NCBI GenBank assembly: GCA_965247115.1
Contig: CBDFGR010000002.1
Span: 832,001-896,000, forward strand
DNA from: Myxococcota bacterium
GTDB taxonomy: Bacteria > Myxococcota_A > UBA9160 > SZUA-336
Length of the DNA: 64,000 nucleotides
Direction of reading: 5' to 3'
The notes beneath the pieces were generated by a model that saw nothing but the letters and a program-made list of their open reading frames with translations, was not told the origin of the DNA and ran no database searches. Position 1 is the first letter of the stretch, and the number at the start of each line of letters is the position of its first letter. The position numbers and the translations under genes were made by a program. Of the stretch, positions 49,812-57,458 are shown in pieces.

Positions 49812-50510
49812 TCACAGGGGTTTCACTGCCTTCTTCGCTGCGTCTCTGATCCGTTTCTCGTCCTGAAAATAGGTCTCCGGGGGTAGCGGGAAGAACTGCT
49901 GCCGCCTGCGCTCGAGCAGCACCTCGAGGCCGCCCCGGTTCGTGAACAGGAGCTTCTCGTTGCGGTCGAAGATGGAGATCGACACGGAAGAGGCGGCAAT
50001 CGTGCCCTTGAACCTGCCCGAGCCCTTGTTCTGGACTCTCTGTTTGGCGCCGTCCCACTTCGCCCTGTCGGCCTCGTACTCCGCGTTGACCACCTGAAGC
50101 CGGATGGCGACGACGGCATCCACCGGGTATCGGAACATCAGCTCGCGATAGCTGTGCTCGCGAACGGCCTGTGTGCGCGCGTTGTCGACCTGGCCGGTAC
50201 TCGCGTTCTGAACCCCCCCGACCTGCTGTTCCATCGTCGCTCTGAGCGTGCGAAGGACCGAGGCGGGGATGACCTCGTAGCCTCGCTTCTCGAGGTGCTT
50301 GGTGATCTCCCCCTGGACGATTACCTCGGCAGAGTCGGGCATTTGAAGCGCTGGCGCGGCATCGATGGGCGACAGTGCCACCACCTTGACGCGGCTCTTG
50401 AACAGCTTCTTGTCCATACGGAAGGGCGAATCGTCGGCCGCGGCCGCGGAGAACGCGAGCAACCCGCAGGTCGTAGTGATCGCCGTCAGGATTCTCGTCA
50501 GCTTCGCCAT
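49812..50510 (-). CDS. Secreted hypothetical protein, last gene of the S8-M48 operon
   Basis: Signal peptide ..SAAAA; starts 4 nt after the M48 stop. Confidence 0.7.
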   Translation of the reverse strand: MAKLTRILTAITTTCGLLAFSAAAADDSPFRMDKKLFKSRVKVVALSPIDAAPALQMPDSAEVIVQGEITKHLEKRGYEVIPASVLRTLRATMEQQVGGVQNASTGQVDNARTQAVREHSYRELMFRYPVDAVVAIRLQVVNAEYEADRAKWDGAKQRVQNKGSGRFKGTIAASSVSISIFDRNEKLLFTNRGGLEVLLERRRQQFFPLPPETYFQDEKRIRDAAKKAVKPL

Positions 50511-50514
50511 CCAC

Positions 50515-51735
50515 TCACCTCATGCTGTCCATGTACGCGCGGATGATGCCCGCGTCGGGGGCATCCTCCGCGAAGCTCAGGTACTGCTCGAACGCGCTCA
50601 TGGCCTCAGCGTTGGCGTGCTGTCTACGATGGGCCATCCCGAGCTCCTTGTAGGCGGGCGCGAAGCCGGAGTCCTTCTCCAGCGCTTTCCGGTAGCGATC
50701 CATACGCGGGGAATAGTCGGGTCCGTCGAGCGCCTCCTTGCGATAGGTCTCCCCGATCAGGAACTCGGCCTCCGGATCCTCCGGCCTCACCGAGATGTAC
50801 TTCGTCAGGGCCGCACGGGCCCGGGCATACTGCTGCTCCTGGATGTCGAGCCGAGCGTTGATGAGCAAGGCGGGCGCGATGCCCCGATAGTAGGACTCCG
50901 ACGCTGGAACCACTCCTGGCTTGTACGCCTGCTTGCTCCTCTTGCGCTCTCTCTTGATCTCTTTCTGGAGGTTCTTGATCCGGTCGTCCAGCTTCGGGTG
51001 GCTGCTCCAGAGCCGGGCTGGATCGGCCACGCCGTAGAACGAGTTGTCGCCAAGGGCCTGGAACCCGAGCAGCGCCTGGTCCCGGGAGTAGTTCGCCTTC
51101 GCCATCAGGACAAGGCCCTCCTCATCGGCCACGTACTCGAGCTTCCGCGAGTAGCCGTTCGTCACGAGGCCCGACCAGAGACCCTCGGTCGAGCCGATCA
51201 GATCGGTATCGATCACGCCCGTCTGCGAGGCCACGGCAACGGTCGCCAAGAGGCCGATCCCCTTGCCGATGATTGATTGCCGTCCCTCGGTGATGAGCTC
51301 GCGGTAGGAGTGACGCTGGAGAAAGTGGGAGATCTCGTGGGCCAGGATCGCGCCGAGCTGAGCCTCGTTTTCCATGCCGGCGAGGAGGCCGGTGTGAACG
51401 GCGATGGTCCCGTACGGGTAGACCCATCCGCCCAGCGTGGGCTCCCTGACCAGGATGAAGTCGAGGTGCATGCCGAGATGATCCAGGCTGGAGCCGAGCA
51501 TCCTGTCCGTGATGGACTCGAGATACGCCTCGACGTGCCGATTGTGGACCATCCTTCCACTGTTGCGCAGGTCATTCTCGTGTCGGCCGGCGATGTCCCA
51601 GAGCTCTGCTTCGTCCGCCTTCGCCGGCAGCTCCTCGAGCTCGGACACCGGATCCACCCTCGCCGCATTCGCCGCCGGCGAGAGAAAGCTGAGCAGAAGA
51701 GCTGCGATCGAAGACAGTCGAACTGCGCCGTTCAT
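50515..51735 (-). CDS. M48 metalloprotease with C-terminal TPRs (BepA/YfgC-like)
   Basis: NEAQLGAILAHEISH, YSR.LEY.AD, SSHP...RI, TPR helices; ATG overlaps the S8 stop (TGATG). Confidence 0.9.
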   Translation of the reverse strand: MNGAVRLSSIAALLLSFLSPAANAARVDPVSELEELPAKADEAELWDIAGRHENDLRNSGRMVHNRHVEAYLESITDRMLGSSLDHLGMHLDFILVREPTLGGWVYPYGTIAVHTGLLAGMENEAQLGAILAHEISHFLQRHSYRELITEGRQSIIGKGIGLLATVAVASQTGVIDTDLIGSTEGLWSGLVTNGYSRKLEYVADEEGLVLMAKANYSRDQALLGFQALGDNSFYGVADPARLWSSHPKLDDRIKNLQKEIKRERKRSKQAYKPGVVPASESYYRGIAPALLINARLDIQEQQYARARAALTKYISVRPEDPEAEFLIGETYRKEALDGPDYSPRMDRYRKALEKDSGFAPAYKELGMAHRRQHANAEAMSAFEQYLSFAEDAPDAGIIRAYMDSMR

Positions 51736-54053
51736 CACTTGATCCTCACCGGGTACACCGCGCGCTTCACGGTGCCATTCTTGTGTTCCACGTTGACCAC
51801 GAGCTGCCAGAGCTCGCTGCCGCTGAACTCTCTAAGGGAAATACTTCCCAGAGTGCCGTCGCGGACGGGAAACTTCAGCTTCCGTCCCACGGACTTCCAT
51901 CCAGCGGGGTTCTCTCCCGCGCCGATCTGCAGCCAGGCGCGCTTGAATATCTCCGCGTCCGCCGTTCCGCTGATCCGCAGCCTGCTCCCGCCGCCTTCCA
52001 CCTGGACGGACTGAACGCGATCGATCGCAGCGGTCACGAAGAACTCAGGATCCACGCTCAGCGCCGTCCGGGCATCCAGCATTCCGAAGCCCGCGTACTT
52101 GTCCTTGCCCGGAAACTCGATGTCTTCCGCCGTCTGGTACAGGATGCGCTCGACATCGCCTACAGTCAGCTCCGGGCTCCTCGCCAGAAGCAGTGACGCG
52201 GTGCCGGTCACGATCGGGGTCGAGAACGATGTCCCGCTGACGTGCAGATAGCGCTTGTCCTCACCGACGTAGTTCGTACCGATCTCGTACTCTTCCGTAC
52301 CCCGGTAGTTCGCATCGGTGTAGCGCGCCCTGAGGCTCAGGACGTCCACGCCAGGAGCCACCAGGTCCACGCGGTCGCCGAAGTTCGAGAAAGCGGCCGC
52401 GCGGTCGTCGGTGTGCGTCGCGCCGACGGTCAGGACGTGCTCGGCGCCAGCGGGGCCGTAGTCTTCCAGCTCGATGCCCTCGTTCCCGGATGCGACGACG
52501 ACCAGCACCCCCTTCTCGTGGGCGTAGTCAAGTGCCGCCTGCTCGATCCGGCTCGTGTGCGGCCCTCCAACGCTGATATTGATGATGCGGGCCCCGTTGT
52601 CCGCCGCGTAGACGATGGCTTCGGCGAGATAGGACGCCCGCGTGGTACCGAAGTTGTTGACCGCTTTCAGCACCATGAGTTTCGCGTGCGGGTTGATGCC
52701 GGCGATACCCGCATCGTTGTTCTGGCTGGCGGCGATGATCCCCCCGACCAAAGTGCCATGACCATCGAAGTCCCAGGGCTTGTTGTGACGACCGAAGAAG
52801 TCCCAGCCGATGATGTCGTCCACAAAGCCGTTGGCGTCGTCGTCGATCCCGTTGTCGGGAATCTCGTCCTCGTTGCGCCAGATGTTCTCGTAGCTGATGT
52901 CGAGGTGATGCCAGTCCAGACCGGTATCGATGACCGCCACCACGACGGGCGCGGCCGTGTCCGGCACCTGATTCCATGCCGAGCTCTCGTCAGCCGTGTA
53001 TCCAACGCGCTTGATGGCCCACTGGTCGTCCATGGGCTGCCCCCAGGAGCCGCCACCATGCCTGCCCGTCCTCTTATAGTTGGGATCCGTCGGAGTCAGC
53101 ACGATCCGACACCAGTCGTTCTCGAAGACGAACTCTGTTACGTAGAGCGTGTTGTAGACGAGACCCAGCTTCAGGTCCTCGAAGTTGAGGGTCGTGAACT
53201 GTCTGTCACCTATGGTGAGCTCGTTCCTGGAGAAACGGCTCAGGGAGTAATGTAGATCGCGCGCCGGCGCCTCGACGGTGATGCTGCCATAGCTGCGACG
53301 GGGCACTGTGAAGTTAAGTGCGTCTGACATCGCATCGGATCCCCCGATGTTCCAAGCGAACCCAGAACGCAGCTGGAACTGCGTATGGCCGTCGTAGCCG
53401 AACGTTCCCCTGATCGGATCTTCGCCCGAACCCTCGTCGGAAGCCTCTGAGTTCGGACCCTGGAAGGAGAAGTCGATGTCGGTGGGCAATACCACGTACT
53501 GCCGCGGGGGAACGTAGAGCTCGAGTTTCGAGGGATCCGGCTCGAGCTGGAGACCGACCCTGGGCGCCAGCTCGAAGCCGCCGTCCCCGTCGTACTGGGC
53601 CTTGGCTCCGAGCATGAGCTCCCCAAATACGTGCGACAAACCGCCATAGTAGAGGTACCCCGGGCCCTCGGAGTCCCACAGTGAACCCCGAGACTCCGCT
53701 CCCGAGCGCCCCCACTTCAGCTTGGAATCATAAGAGAGGTGGAAGTCTCCTGACTCGTTCCCGAGGGCGAAGTTCAGCTTGCCGTAGCCACTGACCAACC
53801 AGGTCGCATCATCCAACGGGGCCGGACTGTCCGTCCCCGCACGATTGCAATCGGCGTCTTGCGTTGCCGCGGCGAAAGCAATCTGCCCTAGTGGCCCGCG
53901 AAAGATCCACGAGCCATCCGTCGGCGAGCCCGGATCGGCAAACGATGCGCCCTCCGGTGTGAAGGCCTGGGTCAGGGACGCCGTGAGGAGCATCGAGATC
54001 ACGAGGCTTGCGGTGCCAGATCGCATAAGCGCACTCATCCGACGACCCCTCAT
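51735..54053 (-). CDS. Secreted S8 subtilase with about 300-aa atypical N-terminal region
   Basis: Triad VIDTG / DGHGT / SGTSFS, DDDANGFVDD Ca loop, C-terminal WLQIGAGENP..W domain. Confidence 0.9.
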   Translation of the reverse strand: MRGRRMSALMRSGTASLVISMLLTASLTQAFTPEGASFADPGSPTDGSWIFRGPLGQIAFAAATQDADCNRAGTDSPAPLDDATWLVSGYGKLNFALGNESGDFHLSYDSKLKWGRSGAESRGSLWDSEGPGYLYYGGLSHVFGELMLGAKAQYDGDGGFELAPRVGLQLEPDPSKLELYVPPRQYVVLPTDIDFSFQGPNSEASDEGSGEDPIRGTFGYDGHTQFQLRSGFAWNIGGSDAMSDALNFTVPRRSYGSITVEAPARDLHYSLSRFSRNELTIGDRQFTTLNFEDLKLGLVYNTLYVTEFVFENDWCRIVLTPTDPNYKRTGRHGGGSWGQPMDDQWAIKRVGYTADESSAWNQVPDTAAPVVVAVIDTGLDWHHLDISYENIWRNEDEIPDNGIDDDANGFVDDIIGWDFFGRHNKPWDFDGHGTLVGGIIAASQNNDAGIAGINPHAKLMVLKAVNNFGTTRASYLAEAIVYAADNGARIINISVGGPHTSRIEQAALDYAHEKGVLVVVASGNEGIELEDYGPAGAEHVLTVGATHTDDRAAAFSNFGDRVDLVAPGVDVLSLRARYTDANYRGTEEYEIGTNYVGEDKRYLHVSGTSFSTPIVTGTASLLLARSPELTVGDVERILYQTAEDIEFPGKDKYAGFGMLDARTALSVDPEFFVTAAIDRVQSVQVEGGGSRLRISGTADAEIFKRAWLQIGAGENPAGWKSVGRKLKFPVRDGTLGSISLREFSGSELWQLVVNVEHKNGTVKRAVYPVRIK

Positions 54054-54212
54054 GGGCCGCCCCGGCAGAGTATCTCACGAGACTCGGGGTCGGGTCGCTA
54101 CCCTTTCTGATAGCCAAACAAATCCCAGGAGTTACGGATTCAGACGCGTCGGCCCACGCGATTGCTCTACCATGGGGTGGCTGGGTAGTCGACTTGCCGC
54201 AAGGAGCTCGAG

Positions 54213-57200
54213 ATGACACTTGAAAAGGTGCCGGCGACGCCGCTGCTGGTGCTGCTGCTCGTATTTGGACTGAGTGCGCCGGGCTGGGCTGGCTTTAGGG
54301 TGAACACGCCCTCACCGATCACGGTCATCACTGGGGAAGAGGTGGAGCGGCTACCTGCTCGACCCATCACAGACTTCATGAGTCTGGTTCCTGGGGTCTC
54401 GAGCGGGACTGCCGGGGAGCCGACACGGTTTCTCGTAAATGGGATTCGTTCCCCCGAATCGGACCGTCTGATACCCAAGGACGATGTCGAGCGCATCGAG
54501 ATACTGAACGGTTCGACGGCGGCCACGTTGTACGGGGGGGAACTCACTGCCGACGTGATCAACTTCGTCACCAAGGACGACTATTCTGGATTCAACGTCG
54601 GTGGATCCTGGGTATTCCAGAACTTAATGAACTCTTTCAAGGATATCTGGATCTCGACGGAGAATGGCGGAGAGTGCGATACCACGAACGGTGAGCTCCG
54701 GTCTACCTTCACTTTGTTCGACCGTTACGACTTTGGAGGGCCCGACTTTGCGAACGGAGGCAACACGTGGCTGTGGGGAAGTCAGTCGCGGGGGTTTGTG
54801 CAAGGTGGGTATGGATACCCGAAACTCGGGCTTTCGTACCCGGACTTGAGAGACACCGAGTCCATGAAAAGGACCGGCTTCTCAGCTCTCGCGGCCCTGA
54901 CTGAGAGTGTAACGGGCGATCCGTCACTTTCTGAAGGAGCCAAGAGTGGCTTCATGGCTGGGCTGTCTATCGTGCTGGCGTACGGGCCGGATTCCCTGTC
55001 GGATCGGGCGCACAGCTTGGGCCACTTTGACCCTGTCGAGATCTACGGGCAGTTGAGCCAGTACTCGGCAAGTGGGGCCACTGGACCCGCGTTCACGCCA
55101 ACTCCGCAAACACAGACCGACGAAGTGGGTGGTGGCGAGCAACTACTGCCCCAACCGTTCGCGGGCTACAGAATACCCTCGAAGTATCTGTTTGAGAATC
55201 CGAATGATTGCCCGGAAGAGGTTGTGGACAGCGTGCGACCGCTGATCCGTGAGTGGGCTCAGGCTCGCGGTGGTATCAGCTACTCCATGGACTATCTGAG
55301 ATATCAGCTGCAGTCCGGCGGAGACACCGGGGAACAGGTGAGGAAGGCGGAAGAGGCACGCAAGCTGCGAGACCAGAAGAACAACGAGATCAACGATGCG
55401 CTGCGCACGTGCGTGCCTCAGACGGCATCAACGGAGGCATCTGCTCCCACAGCGACCTCCGGCGCTGAAGCACAGAGCGGCTCCTGGGGGCGCTGGAGCG
55501 ATGACTTGAAATTGCAGATCTACTTCTCCCGCAATGAACTGGGAGATGATGGGGCGGTCTACAAAGTACCCGCACCGGACGTTCGCGTAGGTCTCCACCC
55601 CTACAACCCTGATCTTGACGTTGGTATCCCGTGGGGCTTCCGGTCGTCCAGGGACACCGACAACGGGGCCAGCGAGGACGGACATAGCAAGATCACCGCG
55701 GCAGATGGAAGCGTCATCTTTGACATGGATTGGTACGATCCGGGCGTCGCTGCGGGCTTCAGAATGCCCACCGACCGGTCGCTGGTGGAATCGTACGAAA
55801 CGGGCGCAAAGTCGAACTGGACGGTGCGCGTGGACTGGGACACCAGCACGATCAAGCTCCGGTCGCACCTGGAGAAGACCGACAGCTTCGTTCAGCTGTT
55901 TGCGGGACAAGCCCAACAGGGCAGCGCCTCCATACAACATGTTCCAACAGGTCTCTTCGCGAATTATCTGTCGAACGAATTTCCTGTGGGCGGAAATCTC
56001 TATCGGGTATATGACAACATCCCGGAGTATCTCAACCTCGATCTGAGTCAATTGTATTCGATATCGGGACAGACGAGTGTCGAGAACAACTCCTGCGGCG
56101 AATCGGCCCTACCGCAGAATGGCCTCGGATACCTCAGCCAAGCAGCCTCGCCCGTCCAGTCGGTCGAGGACCAGTGGGCTCTGGAGCACGTCGGGTTGAC
56201 GGAAGATGCCGCGTTGTCGGAGACGACGTCCAGCGCTGCCGCGCCGATTGTGATCGGTGTCATCGACACCGGACTCGACTGGAACCATCTCGACTTTGCT
56301 TGGGAGAACATCTGGCGGAACGAAGACGAGATTCCCGACAACGGCGTCGACGATGATGGCAATGGCTACGTGGATGACATCATCGGCTGGGATTTCATGA
56401 ACCAGGACAACAAGCCCTGGGACAACGACGGACACGGGACGTTCGTGTCGGGGATCATCGCCGCGACGCACAACAACAGTGCTGGAATCGACGGGATCGA
56501 CCCGAACGCCAGGGTCATGGTGCTCAAGGCACTCAACAATTTCGGCCGTACGCGTGCCTCGTACGTCGCGCAGGCGATTGTGTACGGAGCCGACAACGGG
56601 GCCCACATCCTGAATGTGAGCGTCTCGGGCGGCGAGGTTCCCGGCGTTGTGATCGACGCCCTGGCCTACGCCATAGGCAAGGGCGTACTCGTGATCACAG
56701 CGGCGGGAAACAGGGGTGAGAATATCGACCGTGGCCCGCCGGGCGGGGTGCCAGGTGTCATGTCCGTGGCGGCGACGGGTCCCGACGGCAAGCGCGCGGC
56801 CTTCTCCAACGTCGGATCGTTGATCAACATCGCCGCGCCAGGGGTGGACATCGTGAGTCTTCGGGCTCGCCGCACGGACTTCATGCTGAACAGTGCCACG
56901 ACCACCTACCAGGCTCGCGATGCCTACCTGGGCGATGACAATCGCTACTACCGTTCAGCCGGAACGTCCTTCGCGACTCCTATCGTCAGCGGCATCGCCT
57001 CTCTGGTCTGGTCGAACCGGCCCGAGCTCACGGCGATACAGGTGCAACGGATCCTCGAGCAGTCGGCCCGAGACGTCGGGACGCCGGGCAGAGACCGCTT
57101 CACCGGCTACGGCGTCGTGGATGCACCGGCCGCTCTCGGGGCCGATCCCGAGTTCTTCGTGGAGGCCGCAATTCTCCAGGCCCGACCAGTGGAGGAGGAC

Positions 57201-57458
57201 GAGCAGGTCTTCGTCCAGGTCTTCGGCTCGGCGGATGCCAACCAGTTCGGCCGCGCGTGGCTCGAGATCGGCGAAGGGGAGGATCCATCCCACTGGATCC
57301 CGATAGGGGATGCTCTCCCCGACACGGTCAGGCTGGGAGTGCTCGGCATGATTCCCGCCGCCCAACTAGATGGCGCAAACGTCTGGACGGTCCGCGTGCT
57401 CGTGGAGCACCAAAACAGCCGGCTGCGAGAAGCGAGATACGTAATCGAGCTCGGATGA
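54213..57458 (+). CDS. Secreted S8 subtilase fused to an N-terminal TonB-receptor plug and about 500 aa of unassigned sequence
   Basis: Plug motifs PITVIT.EE..., IP..DVERIEILNG..A.LYG....VINFVTK; triad VIDTG / DGHGT / AGTSFA. Confidence 0.88.
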   Translation: MTLEKVPATPLLVLLLVFGLSAPGWAGFRVNTPSPITVITGEEVERLPARPITDFMSLVPGVSSGTAGEPTRFLVNGIRSPESDRLIPKDDVERIEILNGSTAATLYGGELTADVINFVTKDDYSGFNVGGSWVFQNLMNSFKDIWISTENGGECDTTNGELRSTFTLFDRYDFGGPDFANGGNTWLWGSQSRGFVQGGYGYPKLGLSYPDLRDTESMKRTGFSALAALTESVTGDPSLSEGAKSGFMAGLSIVLAYGPDSLSDRAHSLGHFDPVEIYGQLSQYSASGATGPAFTPTPQTQTDEVGGGEQLLPQPFAGYRIPSKYLFENPNDCPEEVVDSVRPLIREWAQARGGISYSMDYLRYQLQSGGDTGEQVRKAEEARKLRDQKNNEINDALRTCVPQTASTEASAPTATSGAEAQSGSWGRWSDDLKLQIYFSRNELGDDGAVYKVPAPDVRVGLHPYNPDLDVGIPWGFRSSRDTDNGASEDGHSKITAADGSVIFDMDWYDPGVAAGFRMPTDRSLVESYETGAKSNWTVRVDWDTSTIKLRSHLEKTDSFVQLFAGQAQQGSASIQHVPTGLFANYLSNEFPVGGNLYRVYDNIPEYLNLDLSQLYSISGQTSVENNSCGESALPQNGLGYLSQAASPVQSVEDQWALEHVGLTEDAALSETTSSAAAPIVIGVIDTGLDWNHLDFAWENIWRNEDEIPDNGVDDDGNGYVDDIIGWDFMNQDNKPWDNDGHGTFVSGIIAATHNNSAGIDGIDPNARVMVLKALNNFGRTRASYVAQAIVYGADNGAHILNVSVSGGEVPGVVIDALAYAIGKGVLVITAAGNRGENIDRGPPGGVPGVMSVAATGPDGKRAAFSNVGSLINIAAPGVDIVSLRARRTDFMLNSATTTYQARDAYLGDDNRYYRSAGTSFATPIVSGIASLVWSNRPELTAIQVQRILEQSARDVGTPGRDRFTGYGVVDAPAALGADPEFFVEAAILQARPVEEDEQVFVQVFGSADANQFGRAWLEIGEGEDPSHWIPIGDALPDTVRLGVLGMIPAAQLDGANVWTVRVLVEHQNSRLREARYVIELG

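Follow-up and report, generated by a model that had tools for sequence, protein, structure and literature searches.

Why would a predicted secreted protease carry pieces of an outer membrane receptor ahead of its catalytic domain? This question is posed by two adjacent genes, here called proteases A and B, in a 64,000-nucleotide stretch of the genome of a Myxococcota bacterium (GenBank assembly GCA_965247115.1, contig CBDFGR010000002.1, positions 832,001 to 896,000; hereafter, the window). Both encode subtilases of the S8 family, and both contain fragments of outer membrane proteins (OMPs) in their N-terminal regions. Our analysis suggests, with a probability of roughly 55%, that A and B belong to one subtilisin-type family in which the pro-domain, predicted to fold and block the enzyme before being cut off, also carries swappable cargo, the OMP pieces being likely envelope-binding labels or decoys. 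Within this account, confidence is higher for the architecture and lower for the role of the cargo.

Two head-to-head subtilases with a common pro-domain

The original prediction, made from the sequence alone, of two head-to-head S8 genes with an intact D/H/S triad and the same C-terminal domain is borne out by the open reading frames (ORFs). The triad and the oxyanion Asn are complete and in order in both proteins (D371/H427/N519/S604 in A and D685/H741/N833/S919 in B), which are 52% identical across 434 amino acids spanning the S8 and C-terminal domains (BLASTP). The spacing between the genes is 174 bp from the ATG common to the orthologs of A, the start used here, and ∼160 bp from an alternative upstream ATG at 54053. 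A promoter scan returned no sigma-70-like site, and terminator matches occurred only at chance level.

The N-terminal regions, described in the same prediction as largely unrelated, show no BLASTP match to each other, but both end in a common family pro-domain, detected as remote homology and flanked by a conserved cysteine pair. Cys64 and Cys310 are the sole cysteines of A upstream of S8. The further expectation that these regions would be unrelated to known S8 accessory domains does not hold: in the model of A, residues ∼249 to 315 superimpose on the I9-type propeptides of pro-subtilisin E, fervidolysin, and EpiP. A Pfam scan of A and B gave no I9 match. Autocleavage of A is predicted just after the motif E-N-x-W-C310. 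For the first half of the pro-domain, a relative yielded a weak Ig/transthyretin-like lead. Over residues 169 to 325, A differs from one other strain at 1 silent and 5 replacement codons (small numbers). The ∼100-residue C-terminal domain of A matches FnIII/Ig folds and no autotransporter Pfam family; the identification of A as an S8 autotransporter, which would have a C-terminal beta-barrel, was rejected.

The source genome is 98% complete. The arrangement of A, its insert, and the downstream M48-family gene is not an assembly artifact. The original prediction had allowed that reads might fail to span the fusions, but A with its insert is whole, and joined to the M48 gene, on single contigs from three other studies (∼98% identity). 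All three of these contigs end at 54765 to 54770, within the cargo of B; B is nevertheless judged continuous across this point because the database contains full-length proteins, 96% and 68% identical at the N-terminus, that cover it without a break.

A recently captured receptor fragment in protease A

A search with residues 25 to 332 of A retrieved 88 proteins, namely, 5 S8 orthologs and 83 others. Of the latter, 82 bear Oar-type TonB-receptor Pfam domains, and two are named from Aminicenantes. Residues ∼71 to 170 of A align to residues ∼312 to 416 of the Oar-type receptors with 49 to 73% identity, a segment that, judged by its position in the donor sequence, would correspond to the early barrel, behind the plug. 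The closest nonidentical ortholog of A is 97% identical in the S8 domain but only 12% identical across residues 65 to 160; therefore, this segment was swapped recently. Neither the source genome nor 224 further class members yielded a full Oar-type donor, and no donor was found at the DNA level in the source genome. The barrel piece of A most likely came from another lineage.

A conserved Plug in protease B

The N-terminus of B contains a TonB-receptor Plug domain followed, in order, by a Cys motif, a helical repeat, a Cys-flanked hairpin, and the pro-domain. Searching cluster representatives with the pro-region of B yielded 9 proteins. The Plug exceeds the cut-off in all 8 full-length B homologs scanned (7 from this search plus P0006), with S8 identities to B down to 60%, and because of that the N-terminus of B is a conserved architecture rather than a random patchwork. 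The inner Cys pair keeps a 67-residue spacing in 9 of 10 homologs. Compared with one other strain, the Plug of B has 7 silent changes at 78 sites and 2 replacement changes at 225 sites (small numbers). The strains from the three other studies have a common in-frame 12-nucleotide deletion at 54303, at the start of the Plug.

The barrel domain (PF00593) was matched in neither A nor B, A having only donor profile positions 315 to 409. A TonB box, sought as a sequence pattern, was not found in B and is present in 1 of 10 B-clade proteins. Given a Plug in B only, no 22-strand barrel, and no TonB box in B, neither protein was accepted as a TonB-dependent transporter. In the source genome, short frames with Plug matches also occur at C2:2094118 (350 amino acids), C2:1808004 (207 amino acids), and C3:2506594 (342 amino acids); at the last, the barrel lies in a separate frame, and this locus may be a split receptor. 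The ESM Atlas returned no usable match for the pro-domain of B.

Fused and split forms across the family

The layout seen in A and B, i.e., variable cargo, pro-domain, S8, and FnIII-like domain, defines a family for which we found no description; a literature search, with subscription papers and supplements outside its coverage, found no paper on a cargo/pro-domain/S8 family. Members were detected in 13 of 225 genomes of the class, in 2 of 301 genomes from the order of a gammaproteobacterial carrier, and in 4 of 401 genomes of a phylum sample, the last without a further Plug-type member. Two collection scans covered 7/64 and 3/64 parts, and L033 and L210 give one and the same protein, on a contig of 3,982 bases.

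The pro-domain can also be encoded separately. At 6 of 12 S8 genes that lack it, the gene directly upstream ends in a pro-domain (L029, L107, L108 [twice], L111, and L249), each partner having been found with a hidden Markov model (HMM) not trained on it. The predicted complex of the L029 pro-domain with its S8 scored 0.78, against 0.00 for the best control, and its interface includes the catalytic His and Ser. Contact agreement was at least 87%, and the predicted local distance difference test (pLDDT) of the partner was at least 73. The mark used for such complexes was reached by 116 of 157 solved pairs and 2 of 215 mismatched pairs. These models place an I9-like propeptide in the active site as a prediction. 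An S8 tree of 43 sequences, built with FastTree and weakly supported at its deep nodes, shows fused and split members intermingled. It places A and B in separate clades, and the idea that they are a recent tandem duplicate was rejected on that ground.

Across the family, the cargo ranges from plug, barrel, and porin pieces to HExxH motifs and helical bundles; in split partners it varies, and HExxH motifs and a kinase-like stretch alongside helical bundles were seen by eye. OMP capture recurs: a Porin_2 N-terminus is present in 6 of 9 partner proteins of one clade. Four Porin-type partners (P0110, P0112, P0113, and L111:4915-7212) appear to start with Ala-Asp after the signal peptide (by eye). 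An Ala-Asp motif links alphaproteobacterial OMPs to peptidoglycan (PMC12729407), and an anchoring role for this cargo is possible.

Several other members deserve mention. The split partner L108:3703-7236 (1,178 amino acids) has coiled coils and kinase-like motifs by eye and no Pfam match; for a split partner, the ESM Atlas gave only Ig/CarboxypepD leads scoring below 0.9. A DDPRD motif, possibly a cleavage or metal site, recurs in linkers of L028, L029, L022, L204, and P0111, the last with many copies between Cys-flanked, helical-looking units. Head-to-head twins recur, with different partners, in three genomes of one genus and on one metagenome contig. In the genus (L205:1-5928, L206:1578-6922, and L207:2953-9478), a cargo-bearing S8 faces a pro-less S8 with a long C-terminal extension; at the two loci that are complete, a second S8 domain is present there. 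Upstream of another pro-less S8, L243:10588-13572 ends in OMP-like strands with a weak Plug match (21.7 bits, below the cut-off), and a nearby OMP-like protein (L243:5936-7984) has a plug-like peptide in mid-sequence.

A proposed zymogen with exchangeable cargo

In the proposed mechanism, both proteases would be exported by Sec, given signal peptides called by eye, and the I9-like end of the pro-domain is predicted from structure to occupy the active site. The conserved cysteine pair likely closes the pro-region, with the cargo looped out or set in front. By analogy to subtilisin, the protein would cut itself directly behind the last cysteine, and the mature S8-FnIII enzyme would be released when the pro-domain and cargo are displaced or degraded. 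Cargo is exchanged by recombination, as the ortholog comparison shows.

Several observations weigh against this account. The match of the B pro-domain to the family is remote, at the profile level only. The complex prediction was made on the relative L029, not on the window locus, and its score may reflect likeness to solved propeptide-subtilisin complexes. In the model of A, cargo residues 65 to 180 fall below a pLDDT of 50 and have hardly any support from the alignment; the fragment is a recent acquisition, and the insert differs from that of one other strain by 3 silent and 2 replacement changes (tiny numbers). Cargo of non-OMP type occurs in many members of the family; the OMP bias is therefore not shared by all. 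Finally, when A and B were tested for short peptides shared with 17 receptors of the source genome, B beyond the Plug gave 5 peaks, a count reached by 0 of 60 control segments but by 1 of 15 shuffles, and A gave 1 peak, not above the null. Of the OMP-like mosaic N-termini originally proposed, the Plug of B and the Oar-type fragment of A stand; support for a finer patchwork of short receptor-like peptides is no more than modest.

The main rival, which we regard as somewhat unlikely, is that the pro-domain is an ordinary chaperone and inhibitor and the OMP pieces are passengers, either insertions that the protein tolerates or 5′ gene swaps that provide a signal peptide, and are lost along with the propeptide. 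The derivation of the Plug and Porin_2 pieces from the 5′ ends of OMP genes, beside the signal peptide, fits this view, as do the fast turnover of cargo, the codon usage of the B N-terminus (2nd to 9th percentile of the genome), and the loss of the TonB box in 9 of 10 B-clade proteins. Retention of the Plug in every full-length B homolog scanned, the excess of silent over replacement changes in it, and the conservation of the helical repeat and the Cys spacing argue the other way. Passenger cargo suits the insert of A better than the conserved Plug of B.

In a bolder version of this proposal, the family would consist of decoy-gated proteases: exchangeable OMP pieces, some from other phyla, would sit in a disulfide-closed propeptide loop, and binding or cutting by OMP-directed agents, such as phage tails, bacteriocins, predators, or envelope chaperones, would release the inhibitor and activate the enzyme. 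We consider this version unlikely as it stands. Less probable still is payload delivery, in which the S8, as a dedicated processing enzyme, would release the cargo to act as an effector on other cells in the manner of S8-associated polymorphic toxins. A conserved S8 accompanied by polymorphic cargo, whether in one protein or in one operon, the HExxH or kinase-like motifs of some partners (by eye), and the recurrent DDPRD-type linkers would be expected of such a system, but 27 cargo or partner sequences contain no Pfam toxin domain above the cut-off, no conserved small gene was seen downstream across 28 loci (by eye, from ORF lists), and in the window the cargo consists of receptor fragments, the variable part being N-terminal.

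Subtilase propeptides are commonly regarded as short, disposable chaperones. Here, one propeptide apparently doubles as a carrier of polymorphic cargo, fused or as a separate gene, that has repeatedly acquired OMP pieces (plug, barrel strands, and porin N-terminus). A barrel-less Plug kept on a protease and a recently captured foreign receptor fragment are testable cases for the origin of envelope-targeting modules; if cargo indeed gates activation, the family would be a natural programmable protease switch.

The M48 and hypothetical genes form an independent pair

Downstream of A lie an M48/TPR metalloprotease gene, whose start overlaps the stop of A (TGATG), and, after a 4-nucleotide gap, a gene for an exported-looking hypothetical protein. 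This layout agrees with the original prediction, and the coupling may still bring about coexpression in the source lineage. M48 and the hypothetical protein are, however, an independent conserved pair that lies downstream of A in this lineage, judged separate because the S8 family and the hypothetical protein (34 of 225 class genomes) co-occur in no class genome other than the source. A single four-gene system, in which two S8s, a BepA-like M48, and the partner act jointly in OMP quality control or envelope defense, is highly improbable: despite the coupling and the presence of the same block in strains from three other studies, no co-occurrence was seen among 12 other S8-family and 33 other hypothetical-bearing genomes, A and B belong to different clades, an M48 match lies near the hypothetical gene at 14 of 19 other loci compared with 0 of 19 for S8 (1.5-kb flanks), and the S8<>S8-M48-hypothetical synteny is likewise absent from 28 S8 loci (hypothetical in 0, a weak, nonadjacent M48 match in 2), a count that leaves out the neighborhoods of the closest A- and B-clade proteins. 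The hypothetical protein has no Pfam or credible PDB match; several homologs (L216 to L234 loci) have a lipobox-like Cys.

Table 1 Features of the subtilase locus in window coordinates
Feature	Coordinates	Strand	Description
Protease A	51735-54038	-	767 aa (amino acids); signal peptide, cargo loop, pro-domain, S8, FnIII-like domain
A, Cys64	53847-53849	-	Predicted outer disulfide partner of Cys310
A, captured Oar-type TonB-dependent receptor barrel fragment (residues ∼75-160)	53559-53816	-	Donor residues ∼315-409; absent from orthologs
A, pro-domain, beta-rich first half (residues ∼175-248)	53295-53516	-	Pro-domain HMM, E 3e-6; strands in model
A, I9-like propeptide (residues ∼249-315)	53094-53294	-	Structural superposition; ends E-N-x-W-C310
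A, S8 catalytic domain	52044-53093	-	
A, C-terminal FnIII/Ig-like domain	51738-52043	-	Not a beta-barrel
Protease B	54213-57458	+	1081 aa; signal peptide, Plug, Cys155 motif, helical repeat, Cys-flanked helical hairpin, pro-domain, S8, C-terminal domain
B, TonB-receptor Plug (residues 31-128)	54303-54596	+	PF07715, 39.2 bits (cut-off, 23.9)
B, Cys333-Cys400 segment	55209-55412	+	Helical hairpin by eye
B, pro-domain (residues ∼432-632)	55506-56108	+	Receptor-like peptide insert (residues ∼512-536); ends at Cys628; remote match by hhalign (probability 88, E 3e-6)
B, S8 catalytic and C-terminal domains	56130-57455	+	
M48/TPR metalloprotease	50515-51735	-	406 aa; HEISH at 133; TPRs after M48 domain
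Hypothetical protein	49812-50510	-	232 aa; exported-looking, no known family; conserved beside M48/TPR genes

Comparison with known systems

The IetAS anti-phage subtilase was rejected as an identity for the window proteases (IetS/IteS model, 24 versus 900 bits; only short stretches in PADLOC). The M48 protein resembles BepA/YfgC proteases in having an M48 HExxH domain followed by TPRs, but it is 406 amino acids long, is paired with an unannotated protein, and scores 85.8 bits against a cut-off of 570 on the BepA model (NCBIfam NF052400); the BepA-like assignment of the original prediction was accordingly dropped.

Myxococcus PopC, a subtilase without a signal peptide, needs intact Oar for secretion (PMC6434023). 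As here, a subtilase with an unannotated N-terminal part is functionally linked to the Oar class, to whose architecture the fragment of A belongs; here, however, the protease itself bears the fragment, and the source genome lacks a full Oar-type donor. Gram-positive S8-associated polymorphic toxin systems combine a conserved S8 with a secreted protein that has an N-terminal BetaH domain and C-terminal toxins, along with immunity genes (PMC9424270). The coupling of a conserved S8 to a secreted protein that is partly conserved and partly polymorphic is similar, but in this family the layout is reversed: the propeptide-like, conserved part lies at the C-terminal end, and neither toxins nor immunity genes were recognized. 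Identity was rejected because the S8 of the window genes is fused rather than encoded on its own next to a signal-BetaH-toxin gene; no search was made for BetaH itself. Aeromonas ASP is a propeptide-less subtilase with an adjacent-gene chaperone and temporary inhibitor, ORF2, whose C-terminal part binds near the catalytic site (PMC5638518). Set beside it by description, the split forms are alike in having an adjacent partner gene, found at six related loci and not in the window, where the genes are fused; ORF2 lies downstream of ASP, whereas the partners here lie upstream, are 680 to 1180 amino acids long, and carry variable cargo.

The closest likeness is to S8A subtilases with an I9 propeptide (pro-subtilisin E, fervidolysin, and Tk-SP), which have the same catalytic residues and an I9-like fold directly before the enzyme. 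In contrast to these, the family gives no Pfam I9 match, its pro-domain has an additional beta-rich half and can be a separate gene, and it has a conserved Cys pair along with 150 to 1000 residues of variable cargo. The top structural matches are unprocessed pro-forms, and the window proteases would work like an S8A zymogen.
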